This document shows positions 25,250 to 58,371 of a DNA stretch of 64,000 nucleotides, in pieces (positions within the stretch are counted from its first letter, which is position 1; each line of letters opens with the position of its first letter). Source of the DNA: an uncultured Planctomycetota bacterium (GTDB lineage: Bacteria > Planctomycetota > Phycisphaerae > Tepidisphaerales > Tepidisphaeraceae); the NCBI GenBank assembly GCA_963841915.1, contig CAWJEN010000003.1, positions 64,001 to 128,000 of the forward strand, read 5' to 3'. The notes beneath the pieces are model-generated. The model saw nothing but the letters and a program-made list of their open reading frames with translations, searched no databases and had not been told where the DNA came from. Made by a program: the position numbers and the translations under genes.

Positions 25250-25461
25250 GAAAAGTCGCTCTCTGTCCCGAACGGGGCGGGACGCATCTTCGAGTCAGAT
25301 GGGTCACCGGCGACACAACTCGGGCAGAAGACGGACGACCGGCCGCCAATGGCGGGGCGGAAGCACATCGTCCGCCGGTCGTCCTGTTGCGCGAGGACCC
25401 GACAGGTGCCAACCGTCACGCGTTACCACGTGCGGCATCCGCCCGAACACGTCGGGTGGCA

Positions 25462-25656
25462 ACAGGCAGGTCTTCCGGCTACGGGTTCAACAGCGTCGGC
25501 CTGCCTTCCCGCTGACGCATCAGCAGTGGCTTGGTTGGCCGACGCCTGGCCCGTTACGGCGGCGCGTCCGCGGAGGAATCGGCATCATCGTCAGAGACGG
25601 CTCAACCTCACCTCACTTCCCTCTTCGCCGACGACAATGCGTCGCCGGCACCTGTG
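25462..25656 (-). promoter_or_regulatory. Cobalamin (B12) riboswitch
   Basis: Minus strand reads AGGTGC...AAGAGGGAA...GCCGCCGTAA...GCCACTG...GGGAAGGC...AGCCGGAAGACCTGCC, i.e. core elements and B12 box in canonical order. Confidence 0.93.
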
Positions 25657-25664
25657 ACGAAGGC

Positions 25665-25692
25665 AACGTAGCCTCCCGAGCGGGTGCGTCAA
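25665..25692 (-). promoter_or_regulatory. Sigma70-type promoter of the riboswitch operon
   Basis: TTGACG-N16-TACGTT, predicted start ~25658 at the aptamer 5' end. Confidence 0.65.
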
Positions 25693-29857: not shown

Positions 29858-29931
<74 letters not shown>

Positions 29932-55023: not shown

Positions 55024-56373
55024 TTGGAGGACCTTCAACGCACCCAACGCAAGCAGCAGGAACGGGCAGTGCTCGTAGGTGTGATGCTGCCCGACTCGAA
55101 CGCCGATCCACGCAACCCGCTCGGCGAATTGGCGAGCCTGTGCAAGACGGCAGGCGCGACGCCTATCGCCGAAATCTTGCAAAATCGCCGCACCGTCGAC
55201 GCCGGCACCTACGTCGGTAGCGGTAAGGCACTGGAAATCGCCCAGGCATGCAAAGCGCATGATGCCGACTTCATCGCGTTCGACAACGAGCTGACGCCGA
55301 GCCAGATCGGACAGTTGGAGAAGATCATCAACGAGCATCTCGAGTCGCCTCGCGGGGCGGGCGTCAAGGTGCTCGATCGCAGCGAGATCATCCTCGACAT
55401 CTTCGCCAACCGTGCACAGACGCACGAGGCCAAGTTGCAGGTCGAGCTGGCGCAGATGGAATACACGTACCCGCGGCTCACGCGGATGTGGGGCCACCTC
55501 GAGCGAATCGCGGGCGGTGGCACCATCGGCGTCGGTACGCGCGGCCCTGGTGAAACGCAGCTCGAGATCGACCGACGACTTGTCCGCAAACGGATCAGCG
55601 AGTTGAAGTCTGGCATCGCAGAGGTGCAGGCCCGCAAAGCTCGCGAGGTGTCGAAGCGGAACGTGGGCCATTTCACCGTCTGTCTCGTCGGCTACACCAA
55701 TGCCGGTAAGAGCACGCTGTTCAACACGCTGACCGACGCCGGCACCTATGCCGACGACAAGCTGTTTGCGACGCTCGACACGCGAACGCGCTCGTGGAAC
55801 GTCGAGCGTGGTGCCGAAGCGATGTTGAGCGACACGGTTGGGTTCGTACGAGACCTGCCGCACGGCCTGGTAGCGAGCTTCAAGGCGACACTGGAAGAAG
55901 CCGTGCACGCAGACTTGCTTCTGCACGTGCTTGACGTCGGCCACCCGCGGGCCAGGCAGCAGTACGAAAGCGTGCGTGAGGTGCTCACCGAAATTGGTGC
56001 GGGTGACAATCCGGAGGTTTTGCTGCTGAACAAGGTCGACACACCCGAGGGCAAATACCAGATCGACGAATGGCTGGCGCTGCGGCCCGATGCCCTTGCC
56101 ATCAGCGCCAAAGACGGCACCGGCATCAAGCCCGTCGGTGCCCACGTGTTTGACATGATTCAGGGCACGCAGCGAAGGGTCACGCTCAAGCTCGATGTCC
56201 GCGACGGCAAGCGGCTGGCGTTCCTGGAGCGGTCGGCCCGCATCGAATCCCGCGAGTACGACGGCGAGGTGGTCGAAATCAAAGCGAGTGTCGGCCGGCG
56301 GGTGCTGGGTGATCTGCGACGAGACGATGGCGTGCAGATTGTCGATGTGTCGGATCTGCTCGGCGGCGAGTAG
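55024..56373 (+). CDS. hflX: GTPase HflX
   Basis: ILDIFA.RA.T.EAKLQVELAQ, GPGETQLE.DRR, GYTNAGKST, DTVGF, NKVD; start uncertain. Confidence 0.96.
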   Translation: MEDLQRTQRKQQERAVLVGVMLPDSNADPRNPLGELASLCKTAGATPIAEILQNRRTVDAGTYVGSGKALEIAQACKAHDADFIAFDNELTPSQIGQLEKIINEHLESPRGAGVKVLDRSEIILDIFANRAQTHEAKLQVELAQMEYTYPRLTRMWGHLERIAGGGTIGVGTRGPGETQLEIDRRLVRKRISELKSGIAEVQARKAREVSKRNVGHFTVCLVGYTNAGKSTLFNTLTDAGTYADDKLFATLDTRTRSWNVERGAEAMLSDTVGFVRDLPHGLVASFKATLEEAVHADLLLHVLDVGHPRARQQYESVREVLTEIGAGDNPEVLLLNKVDTPEGKYQIDEWLALRPDALAISAKDGTGIKPVGAHVFDMIQGTQRRVTLKLDVRDGKRLAFLERSARIESREYDGEVVEIKASVGRRVLGDLRRDDGVQIVDVSDLLGGE

Positions 56374-56398
56374 CTCGTCCCGTCGGCTAAGCTGCGGC

Positions 56399-57385
56399 GT
56401 GCAAGATGCCGCTTTCCCCGTTGCGAGGCTACGTCGTCTGCGACACTCGTCGCACGTTCGGCAGATGCTCCAGCGCGTCCGCCTGCGACCAAGTGACCTC
56501 ATCGTGCCCGTCTTCGTGCACGACGGCCAGACGGTCGAAGTCGCCAGCATGCCCGGCGTCTTTCGGCACAACATCGATGACGCCGCCGATTGGCTCGACA
56601 AGCTAGCGGTGCGGGGCGTGGGCGGTTTTCTCGTATTCGGCGTTCTTCCCGAAGCGGCAAAAGACGCGACCGGCACGCCCGGTGCGGACGGCGACAATGT
56701 CGTCTGCCGCCTCGTCCGAGAGATGAAGCGGCGAAGCAACCCGATGCTGGCAATCACCGATGTATGCCTCTGCGAATACACCGACCACGGCCATTGCGGC
56801 CCTTTAGCTGGTGAGACGGTCGACAACGACGCAGCCCTTCCGCTGCTCGCCGAGCAGGCAGTGAAGCACGCTGCCGCCGGTGCCGACTGGGTTGCGCCCT
56901 CGGCTGCGATGGACGGCATGGTGGCTGCCATACGCCTCGGTCTCGACGGGGCGGGACATACGCAGACGGCGATTCTGAGTTACAGCGTCAAGTACGCCGG
57001 CGCGTTCTACGGGCCTTTTCGCGACGCCGCGGCCAGTGCACCCAGCTTCGGCGATCGCCGGGCGTACCAGATGGACGCTTGGCGAGGCACGGACGAAGCC
57101 GTTCGCGAGGCACAGCAGGACGTGGCCGAGGGGGCTGACGTCGTGATGATCAAGCCCGCTGGGCCATACCTGGACGTCGTCGCCGCCGTTCGCGAGGCGG
57201 TGAACGTGCCGACGGCCGCGTATCAAACGAGCGGCGAATACGCCATGCACGTTGCAGGTGGTGAGATGGGTTGGATCGACACGGACGCCGTCGCTTTCGA
57301 AAGCGTTGCCGCCATCCGACGAGCGGGAGCTGATCTGGTGGTGACGTATCACGTCGAGCGGCTGTTGCGGCTGCTCGGAGTGTGA
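56399..57385 (+). CDS. hemB: Porphobilinogen synthase
   Basis: RLRRLR, DVCLCEYTDHGHCG, APS..MDG, FYGPFRDA, MIKP, AYQTSGEY. Confidence 0.97.
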   Translation: MQDAAFPVARLRRLRHSSHVRQMLQRVRLRPSDLIVPVFVHDGQTVEVASMPGVFRHNIDDAADWLDKLAVRGVGGFLVFGVLPEAAKDATGTPGADGDNVVCRLVREMKRRSNPMLAITDVCLCEYTDHGHCGPLAGETVDNDAALPLLAEQAVKHAAAGADWVAPSAAMDGMVAAIRLGLDGAGHTQTAILSYSVKYAGAFYGPFRDAAASAPSFGDRRAYQMDAWRGTDEAVREAQQDVAEGADVVMIKPAGPYLDVVAAVREAVNVPTAAYQTSGEYAMHVAGGEMGWIDTDAVAFESVAAIRRAGADLVVTYHVERLLRLLGV

Positions 57386-57394
57386 GGCGATGAC

Positions 57395-57614
57395 AACGGT
57401 CAAAATTAGAAGAGCCCGAGAGCCGCGGTTTCACGGACCGCTGGTCTGACGATGCATGCAGCACCGCCATCGCGTCTTCCGCAGAAGGCGTGCTCTGCCC
57501 GGGGCTCGAGGAGATGGTGACGTCGCAGATCGTCAGACCGGCGACCCGTCGGTTCGCGGCTCGGGGACGTTGCACCCGCCCGTCTCGCTCGTTCTGATCC
57601 AACAGTGCCCCGTT
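57395..57614 (+). ncRNA. Unassigned rod-like structured RNA candidate
   Basis: Nested stems pair the two halves of the hemB-mscL intergenic region; most mismatches are G-U on the + strand. Confidence 0.55.
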
Positions 57615-57630
57615 AGCAACATGGTCGCAC

Positions 57631-58323
57631 TCAGTCTGCGTCCGGCGGCGTCGGAGCCTTCGACCCGCTGGCCATGAGGTCCCGAATCTCCGTCAGCAGC
57701 CGTTCTTCTGTTGACAGGGCGGGCGTTTGATCCGGACCCGGCTCGTCAGCCGCCTGCTCCTTCTCGCGATTGAGCTTGTTCATCACGCGGATGACCATGA
57801 AGATCGCGAACGCCTGGATGATGAATTTGATGACATCATTGAGAAACTTGCCGTACATGATACGGACGACCTTGTTTTCGCCCTCGCCGACGGTGCCGGT
57901 TTCGGGATCAGGCTCTGCCGTAGCGTCTGCCACTTCAGCGGCGGCTGACTCAACCGTATCTGCCGCTTGCTCGACCTGATCGGCGGCGGCTTCGACGTCC
58001 TCGGGCGTGTCGGCGGCAGCGGCAGCATCTGCAGCATCAGCGGCATCATCGCCCGCCGCGGCAGCGTCATCTCCGGCTCCGGCGACGTCCGTAGCAGTCT
58101 CCGCCACGTCGGCCGCCGCTGCTTCCAGCTTGCCGACCGGAATGTCGATCGACAACTCTTCGAACTCGACACCGCTCACGAGCCAGCCCAATGGCGGCAT
58201 CATGACGTTCGTCACGAACGATGACACCACCGCACCAAACGCAGCACCAATGATCACGCCCACGGCGAGATCGATGACGCTGCCCTTCATGGCAAACTCT
58301 TTGAACTCTTGCAGCAGTTTCAT
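57631..58323 (-). CDS. mscL: Large-conductance mechanosensitive channel with long acidic loop insertion
   Basis: EFKEFAMKGSVIDLAVGVIIGAAFG, YGKFL, LLTEIRDL. Confidence 0.95.
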   Translation of the reverse strand: MKLLQEFKEFAMKGSVIDLAVGVIIGAAFGAVVSSFVTNVMMPPLGWLVSGVEFEELSIDIPVGKLEAAAADVAETATDVAGAGDDAAAAGDDAADAADAAAAADTPEDVEAAADQVEQAADTVESAAAEVADATAEPDPETGTVGEGENKVVRIMYGKFLNDVIKFIIQAFAIFMVIRVMNKLNREKEQAADEPGPDQTPALSTEERLLTEIRDLMASGSKAPTPPDAD

Positions 58324-58371
58324 GCGTCGCATGATGCCGCTGCAGCTGCGTCGTCGCAACTTTTTGTGCCG

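Follow-up and report, generated by a model that had tools for sequence, protein, structure and literature searches.

The convergent genes hemB and mscL of an uncultured Planctomycetota bacterium of the order Tepidisphaerales (assembly GCA_963841915.1) enclose an intergenic segment in which a first-pass annotation, made from the sequence letters alone, had placed a candidate rod-shaped structured RNA of about 220 nt. The whole stretch of DNA analysed here, called the window, comprises 64,000 nt (positions 64,001 to 128,000 of contig CAWJEN010000003.1), and coordinates without a genome code refer to it. Segment 57420-57562 is most probably a REPIN-like doublet (REPIN, repetitive extragenic palindromic [REP] doublet forming hairpins), one of 13 in this genome, which would likely have been spread by a small transposase of the HUH/Y1 type acting on single-stranded DNA. 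The element is thus likely to be the relic of a mobile element and not an RNA gene. It belongs to a repeat family, its arms contain a covarying local hairpin, it shows no target-site duplication (TSD), the hairpin exists in lineage-specific versions, and in congeneric species the arms are linked to a gene. The genome of the window is referred to as G000 (3.63 Mb, 6 contigs, 93.8% complete) and four congeners as G001 to G004.

A family of inverted doublets

A BLAST search with the 220 nt of 57395-57614, whose letters as quoted in the annotation match the window sequence, returned 60 matches in G000 at E <= 10, chiefly in two arm regions, and a profile of the arm (nhmmer) gave 70 matches at the same threshold, including 13 inverted pairs. 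The arms follow each other in the order + then - in all 13 pairs of G000 and in the 19 pairs read in G004, a congener that holds at least 19 of them. The annotation had stated that many copies would turn its RNA candidate into a repeat element, and the copy number indeed points this way. The consensus arm of G000 is GAGCCGCGGTCCCACGGACCGCCGGTCTGACGA (33 nt). Arm to arm, the elements span 141-216 nt, and the folded doublets have a minimum free energy (MFE) of -83 to -143 kcal/mol. Their spacers, of 75-150 nt, vary in length and have only short motifs in common (AGCAC...GTGCT, cgtcttcc...ggaagacacg). Such a set of 13 paralogous copies with divergent spacers argues against a dedicated structured RNA gene, either a divergent 6S-like RNA or a novel small RNA (sRNA), being expressed as a rod from the hemB-mscL spacer.

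The arms of G000 carry a mean of 2.38 mismatches to the consensus, with 7 of the 26 being perfect and the window copy (3 + 5) among the more decayed, and those of G004 are less decayed (1.12 mismatches per arm). Arm singletons are also found in G000. A perfect palindrome at G000:C5:1208777-1208807, GAGCCGCGGTCCCACGGACCGCGGCTC, looks like a doublet collapsed by the deletion of everything between the two arm hairpins, and can be compared to the 'double foot' REPs of PMC6006769. In G004, runs of N (masked positions) lie beside or within two elements, L034 and L044, and these positions were excluded from the counts.

According to a codon-usage gene caller, 10 of the 13 copies in G000 are cleanly intergenic, one extends 15 nt over a called start and two overlap weakly supported calls. 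This context bears on the possibility that the element, whatever its origin, is kept by the host, its arm cores binding a dimeric DNA-binding protein or its palindrome serving as a 3' stabiliser or bidirectional stop. The retention of the arm cores in the face of drifting spacers would agree with such a role, as would the position of the window copy, with convergent stop codons at distances of 34 and 68 nt, and REPs reportedly influence both termination and the stability of mRNA (PMC6006769, PMC3733652). Against it, the window copy is the only one of the 13 placed between convergent genes (2 lie between divergent and 10 between co-directional ones), and the family is missing from congeners or replaced there by other versions, which argues against a conserved host function.

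The distribution of the family is narrow. Among 41 genomes (own, genus, family and class) searched with the consensus arm at <= 3 mismatches, 19 matches were found in G000, 31 in G004 and 2 in G002, with none in the remaining 38 and none for the reversed-pattern controls. An exact degenerate pattern applied to a collection of species-representative genomes gave 20 stretches, all of them in one metagenome-assembled genome of an uncultured member of the Tepidisphaerales, and metagenome scans with two degenerate arm patterns yielded no match with either. Downstream of hemB, no element is present in G001, G002 or G004, in which other convergent genes are found; the hemB locus of G003 aligned poorly (score 33) and was therefore left unread. 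A locus without the element in three congeners is a further point against a dedicated RNA gene.

Complementarity beyond the arms drops to chance about 4-5 nt outside (31 copies). None of these 31 elements is bordered by a direct repeat of 4-8 nt at offsets 0-12, and direct repeats of 2-3 nt outside the arms occur at the chance level. These data bear on the remaining proposal of the annotation, a palindrome resembling a miniature inverted-repeat transposable element (MITE). A classical MITE would be the deletion derivative of an insertion sequence (IS) with a DDE transposase, its 33-bp terminal inverted repeats (TIRs) being read as double-stranded DNA and its insertion duplicating the target. 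The inverted 33-nt termini, variable interior, moderate copy number and patchy presence within the genus are what such an element would show, and the absence of any TSD of at least 4 nt (0/31) is not.

The arm hairpin and the long rod

Every arm holds CCGCGGTCC-CAC-GGACCG(C)CGG, that is, a stem of 9 bp with one bulged base and a 3-nt loop. The arm of G004 differs from that of G000 at two positions that pair with each other in the stem, 10 (T>A) and 18 (A>T). Pairing was counted in 67 arms (45 of them distinct), comprising 26 from G000, 34 from G004 and 7 homologous ones from G001 and G002, with two elements of G004 left aside for arm indels. The arm copies are paralogues and hence non-independent, so that the covariation figures are descriptive only: 95.6% of the cells in the stem pair, as compared to 86.1 +/- 0.9 in shuffles (0/500 as high), both sides change in 6 of the 9 pairs (1/500 shuffles), and the covariation score is 0.318 vs 0.134 (0/500 as high). 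When partners were slid by 1-3 columns as a control, pairing did not exceed 43.7%. The pair 10-18 occurs as UA in 17 arms, AU in 16, GC in 5 and CG in 4. Symmetric double changes of this kind (T-A to A-T) would also be expected if a dimeric host protein read a double-stranded palindrome.

The long rod, on the other hand, is not maintained. Across 30 elements, 100 arm variants were compared with the partner arm and none recurred there, which speaks against an RNA gene whose function depends on the rod. Of 40 variants within the stem, 8 stay Watson-Crick paired inside their own arm. On the GAGCC strand of the arms, G-T wobbles are seen 17 times and A-C pairs 4 times. The reference for this asymmetry is the arm, not the chromosome, and it fits a single-stranded hairpin better than a protein site on duplex DNA, counting against recognition of the palindrome by a host dimer. 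Taken with the covarying hairpin, this strand-specific tolerance of G-T is not predicted either by the double-stranded recognition of a MITE. Lastly, the sense strand gives the more stable RNA in only 3 of the 10 co-directional copies, so that the selection at the RNA level proposed in the annotation finds no counterpart in a sense-strand bias.

The fold of the hemB-mscL spacer

The RNA fold predicted for the + strand of 57395-57614 is one long imperfect hairpin with an MFE of -105.8 kcal/mol, compared with -86.99 +/- 4.72 for 200 dinucleotide shuffles (z -3.99), of which none was as good; the fold thus surpasses its shuffled controls, and the rod as a predicted shape stands. For the - strand the value is -99.0 kcal/mol (z -2.30; 5/200 shuffles as good). 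A strong fold, more stable by 6.8 kcal/mol on the + strand, is indeed what an RNA gene would display. The inner pairings that the annotation had listed were also recovered, namely GAGCCGCGG (57420-57428) with TCGCGGCTC (57554-57562), the 15 nt of 57439-57453 with 57529-57543 (one G-T) and a local hairpin at 57472-57491, the main inverted repeat running from 57420-57453 to 57529-57562 (34 nt, 76% complementary). The outermost stems were not confirmed. The pairings AACGG/CCGTT and ATTAGAA-GAG/CTC-G-TTCTGAT, formed by 57395-57419 with 57563-57614, contribute -22.2 kcal/mol, a value close to the -20.9 +/- 3.6 of shuffled flanks (170/500 as good or better) and equalled by random genomic flanks in 391/500 cases; they are at the chance level, and the repeat core is 57420-57562. 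Most departures from complementarity had been described as G-U on the + strand, and the two arms of the window copy in fact differ at 8 positions: G-U pairs result at 4 of them on the + strand and at 2 on the - strand, and the other 2 are transversions.

Searches for known RNAs gave no support to the 6S-like or sRNA readings. An Rfam scan of 56800-58200 gave 7 weak matches at E <= 10, none of them overlapping 57395-57614, and the 6S model RF00013 had no match in this interval at E <= 10 nor in the whole genome at E <= 1. This last result leaves the 6S gene of the genome (93.8% complete) unplaced, which is a point in favour of a divergent 6S RNA. The element shares with that family its size (~150-220 nt) and a predicted rod-like shape. 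In contrast with 6S RNA, it matches no model, is multi-copy and is not conserved at its locus in relatives. Five loci with other copies gave, in Rfam, only MIR3454 (41.5 bits, far under the gathering score of 142), an artefact of long hairpins. Neither a sigma-70-like promoter nor an intrinsic terminator (GC-rich stem plus T run; 0 terminator-like sites on either strand) was found in 57200-57800, and the lack of a T-tract terminator in that interval also speaks against a bidirectional stop kept by the host. With several copies, no Rfam match, no hemB-linked element in three congeners, outer stems at chance and no sense-strand bias, an RNA gene at this locus, be it 6S-like or a novel sRNA, is hardly tenable.

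Species versions of the hairpin

Each species of the genus carries its own version of the hairpin, and the gene, where present, lies between arms of that species' version. The versions are GGTCC-CAC-GGACC in G000, GGACC-CAC-GGTCC in G004, GGGCT-TAC-AGCCC in G001 and CCGCTC-AAC-GAGCGG in G002, each being present in its own genome. The G001 version has 88 matches in G001, 19 (related forms) in G003, one in G004 and none in G000, and that of G002 was found in G002 only. The flanks of the G001 gene, AGCCGCGGGCTTACAGCCCGCAGG, have the same architecture as the window arm, with three apical pairs altered in a compensating manner.

Two further observations concern these versions. In G003 (for instance at C60:14517-14598 and C62:1836-1859), a sub-variant GGGCCTACGGCCC vs GGGCTTACAGCCC represents a compensating change from T-A to C-G at the loop-closing pair. 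In G001, head-to-tail arrays of doublets with that species' own hairpin version are found at C1:102787-103350 and C1:2313689-2314044 (9-10 matches in steps of ~70-87 nt, and 6 matches in steps of 135 nt), which contrast with the solitary doublets of G000.

A gene between the arms in congeners

At G004 C55:5731-6328, a pair of arms with 1 and 0 mismatches encloses 532 nt instead of the usual ~95, and this interior contains a frame of 157 codons with an in-frame TAG at codon 20. When the 129-aa part after the stop was used as a query, homologues were found in G001 (45% identity) and G002 (40%). The G001 homologue appears frameshifted and has inverted doublets of AGCCGCGGGCTTACAGCCCGCAGG on both sides, and the G002 gene is a frame of 199 aa with the motifs HLH and QYLPDH, flanked by 37-nt arms that hold CCGCCGCTC-AAC-GAGCGGGGG. 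A homologous gene of ~160 aa is therefore flanked by the species' own hairpin version in three congeners. G003 has 19 matches of the hairpin type, yet the single query tried there gave no homologue of the arm-flanked gene.

A database protein with exactly the sequence of the one from G002 bears the name 'REP element-mobilizing transposase RayT', given by the Joint Genome Institute (JGI), and six further database relatives are unnamed or 'hypothetical'. Of 7 family members, 5 match the Pfam family PF01797 (Y1_Tnp), all under its cut-off of 23 bits (best match 15.7 bits, E 0.01), and for protein P0001 nothing relevant was found in Pfam or NCBIfam, NF047646 included. An AlphaFold2 model built from a 7-sequence alignment (mean predicted local distance difference test score, pLDDT, 87.5; predicted TM-score, pTM, 0.82) was compared by Foldseek with the PDB, in which the top match is 4er8_A, a REP-associated tyrosine transposase (RAYT) bound to its REP hairpin (E 4.6e-5), followed by chains of the IS608, ISDra2, Sulfolobus and IS200 TnpA proteins (2vih and 2a6m among the top ones). 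The predicted fold of the family is thus closest to those of RAYT/TnpA-REP and of the IS200/IS608 TnpA; a PDB search by sequence with the protein profile gave only a chance match to SufD (E 1.5). Residues H84 and H86 (HxH) and Y144, P146 and H148 (YxPxH) are nearly invariant in 50 relatives. A profile search among 1.84 billion representatives retrieved 1097 proteins at E <= 0.001, 354 at <= 1e-10 and 94 at <= 1e-30, so that this protein family is sizeable (1097 representative clusters) and poorly annotated.

The gene-carrying element of G004 is also relevant to the MITE explanation. Its arms flank the gene directly, as the TIRs of an IS would do, and 6 of 17 doublet spacers of G004 are weakly similar to its subterminal regions (scores above 24, where the 99th percentile of shuffles lies), as could be expected of internal deletion derivatives. 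The corresponding comparison placed none of the 13 doublets of G000 above the 99th percentile, and the only arm-flanked gene seen is predicted to have an HUH/Y1-like and not a DDE fold, DDE transposases not having been systematically searched for. The MITE-like palindrome remains the nearest of the options in the annotation, in that the element is a repeat, but it is not a classical TIR-MITE, because no TSD is present and its hairpin-bearing REP arms are tied to an HUH/Y1 gene; we regard that origin as very unlikely.

The search for a cognate gene in G000

No arm-flanked gene was found in G000. A classical RAYT-like gene at G000:C6:1462938-1463678 (PF01797, 32.5 bits; NF047646, 52 bits against a cut-off of 80) was considered as the cognate and rejected, as neither arms nor comparable inverted repeats surround it, and a PF01797 match at C5:936387 is weak. 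A candidate at C6:623264 (E 0.038) was dropped, having one TGA inside, no arms and a translation that is not a recognisable protein.

Outside the window, at G000:C3:48248-48721, an HUH/Y1-like domain is embedded in frame within valS (PF01797, 30.6 bits; motifs NHLH, WT and YTVDRQ), and it is the sole match of the G002 protein in G000 (E 1.9e-6, 29% identity). The valS frame (L010/L075, G000:C3:46748-50221, ~14-17 kb before the start of the window) is open for 1365 aa, and to either side of the embedded domain lie inverted doublets of another repeat, CCCCTCCCTCACGGTCGGGGCTCGC, which translate as ASPDREGG / SEPLPDGRGS.

Since no arm-flanked gene was found in G000 and its arms are more decayed than those of the congener, the window copy is probably an immobile orphan, and the G000 family as a whole has probably been orphaned. 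The missing ~6% of the assembly leaves room for an arm-flanked gene, so that this status may change.

A doublet at G000:C5:1297215-1297373 (L022) lies directly after a transporter-like gene, whose orthologue in G004 (68% aa identity) is one ferredoxin gene away from the gene-carrying element (within locus L076, C55:5509-9842); the G000 homologue of that ferredoxin lies 68 kb away. The arrangement hints at a common ancestral site for L022 and the G004 gene-carrying element.

Relation to known systems

REPs are described as tagged palindromes of 20-40 bp, found mostly as inverted dimers with spacers of 20-100 bp, from which larger folded structures may arise (Di Nocera et al., PMC3733652). The window family resembles the REP/REPIN (or bacterial interspersed mosaic element, BIME) and RAYT systems (PMC3116915, PMC3337134, PMC3733652) in its short, bulged and imperfect palindrome, with putative short feet that stay unpaired, in its predominance of inverted pairs able to form one large hairpin, in its intergenic dispersal, species-specific sequence and absence of target duplication, and in the association, here in congeners, with a single-copy HUH/Y1 gene that has the repeat on both of its sides. 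It differs from the REPs depicted in those sources in that its foot is neither GTAG nor CGTC, its copy number is low (13 doublets) and its spacers are long (75-150 nt). Its associated protein scores far under the RAYT cut-offs of Pfam and NCBIfam, the tyrosine motif reads YLPxH, and the cognate gene was not found in G000.

Among the TnpAY1 proteins, class 3 has been reported as rare, present mainly in Planctomycetes and Acidobacteria, with a core of 155 aa and the motifs NHVH, W[TA] and YV[VI][AENY]EQ, the hairpins on either side of its genes being atypical and having CnGA as their foot (Quentin et al. 2018, PMC6006769); the class 3 REPs listed in Table S1 of that paper begin CCGAGCCGCG or CAGAGCCGCG. 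The likeness extends to the arm of the window family, which begins GAGCCGCGG, the published REPs starting CCGA/CAGA-GCCGCG, as well as to the ~155-aa protein core with a conserved N-terminus and to flanking hairpins that also exist in many copies. The start CnGA-GCCGCGG is present in 15 of 26 arms of G000, and the inner end of the arm is TCTG (CAGA on the other strand) in 20 of 26 arms of G000 and 31 of 34 of G004. The domain embedded in valS (29% identity; NHLH, WT, Y-T-V-D-R-Q) likewise fits the class 3 motifs of PMC6006769. In contrast, the arm-flanked family has THxH and YLPxH where the published motifs are NHVH and YV[VI][AENY]EQ, and the stem of the window family is a regular helix of 9 bp, the stems of Table S1 being weak and interrupted. 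By comparison with the published motifs, the arm-flanked family is related to class 3 and may form a subclass of its own.

Genes for RAYTs can be flanked by REPs or by long TIRs, the latter arrangements being known as 'TIRtrons' (PMC3733652). The G004 gene lies directly between inverted 33-nt arms and gene-less pairs are moderately abundant, as in the TIRtrons/TIRYTs of that source, whereas the REP-like hairpin inside the arms and the doublets on both sides of the G001 gene, as in a REPtron, set the family apart from what it describes for TIRtrons. No report on such elements in the Tepidisphaerales was found among the literature matches listed.

Conserved ends, a variable centre and an extrahelical base are also features of integron attC sites. 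This possibility was rejected, as the copies are dispersed singly and the arm seems to have no core of the GTTRRRY type.

The window copy and its surroundings

The whole repeat, an inverted doublet of the 33-nt REP-like arm with a 77-nt spacer, occupies 57420-57562 (G000:C3:121420-121562), and the nhmmer envelopes of the element extend over 57410-57570. The left arm, 57420-57452 on the + strand, has 3 mismatches to the genome consensus, and its own hairpin (57423-57444) comprises 9 bp, the bulged base and the CAC loop, with two C>T changes that lead to G-T wobbles. The right arm, 57530-57562, is read on the - strand and has 5 mismatches; within its own hairpin (57538-57559), G>A at arm position 9 and C>T at position 19 compensate each other. 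The spacer between them, 57453-57529, is the second shortest among the 13 and holds the semi-conserved AGCAC...GTG motif together with the local hairpin 57472-57491 (GCGTCTTC-CGCA-GAAGGCGT). The left flank (57395-57419) and the right flank (57563-57614), which had been counted as outer stems of the rod, are outside the repeat family.

As had been annotated, the element is surrounded by convergent hemB and mscL, with 57395-57614 contained in the 245-nt gap between their stops at 57385 and 57631. The gene hemB (56195-57385, + strand), for delta-aminolevulinic acid dehydratase, is identified by PF00490 (E 4.8e-122) and ends 34 nt before the left arm; the codon-usage gene caller sets its start at 56465. 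The gene mscL (57631-58359, - strand), identified by PF01741 (E 4.1e-39), has its stop 68 nt after the right arm. Its product is of 242 aa and has two separate parts that match Pfam. After the first transmembrane part, ~90 residues are inserted in which Ala, Asp and Glu abound (AAAADVAETATDVAGAGDD...). At the Rfam gathering score, the whole window contains only a cobalamin riboswitch at 25448-25670 (- strand, 92.4 bits) and a tRNA at 29858-29931 (- strand, 62.6 bits).

Discussion

By analogy with REP/REPIN-RAYT systems and with IS200/IS605, the spreading of these doublets would start in single-stranded DNA, in which each arm would fold into its own hairpin. An HUH/Y1 enzyme would bind the hairpin of the arm and cut and rejoin the DNA beside the foot, and the doublet could then be copied or moved without duplicating the target. 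If transcripts of hemB or mscL reach the element, the resulting long hairpin at the 3' end of the RNA could stabilise or end them, as is reported of REPs elsewhere. Whether by this route or as a site for a dimeric protein, retention of the element by the host as its main explanation is unlikely, considering the orientation of the flanking genes, the asymmetry of the wobble pairs and the turnover of the family among congeners.

Several findings weigh against a REP doublet moved by an enzyme of this kind. The G004 gene is broken by its TAG codon, so that no intact cognate of the exact window arm has been seen, and the arm-flanked gene is missing from G000 in an assembly 93.8% complete, the 129-aa query giving no homologue in G000 or G003 at E <= 0.01. 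The PF01797 matches of G000 (C6:1463088, C3:48278 and C5:936387) are not near any arm, and a 50-sequence profile finds in this genome only the valS-embedded domain (E 7.7e-17) and the weak C6:623264. As to the protein, it misses the Pfam and NCBIfam cut-offs, the Foldseek TM-scores are moderate (0.43-0.52), and the tyrosine motif YLPxH differs from the published YV[VI][AENY]EQ of class 3. Only 15 of 26 arms of G000 and 9 of 34 of G004 have the outer CnGA foot, and in G004 nTGA is found in 24 of 34. In G000, the spacer halves are more complementary within their own element than with those of other elements (0.54 vs 0.43; 6/2000 permutations as high), a difference that is not significant in G004 (0.545 vs 0.499; 223/2000); some pressure on the whole palindrome, or a common origin of it, may lie behind these values. 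Finally, the genes around three elements (window, C5:1297215 and C6:224532) are non-adjacent in congeners, which offers no empty site for comparison. The loci round L022 and L006 break up in congeners, and so do neighbouring gene pairs without any element, so that neither mobility nor rearrangement hot spots can be judged from them.

A more far-reaching and speculative possibility, which we hold only tentatively, is that the doublet has been orphaned from a branch of hairpin-and-transposase systems not described so far, characterised by a ~160-aa HUH/Y1 protein with the YLPxH motif, in which the hairpin would be re-tuned in each species and gene-less doublets would outlast the gene, possibly to be used by transcripts or by the host. 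The proteins of this YLPxH branch form 354 representative clusters at E <= 1e-10 and escape recognition by Pfam, and in the Tepidisphaerales their gene is found between two REP arms in the manner of an IS.

The main value of these results is a correction: a convincing 220-nt 'RNA rod' in a GC-rich intergenic spacer is a repeat, and the copy number in its own genome settled the matter. Beyond this locus, the genus provides a compact natural series in which compensatory changes have adapted the hairpin species by species and the matching HUH gene is present, broken or absent. Such a series could be used to follow the co-evolution of REP hairpins with their enzymes and the persistence of orphaned doublets.

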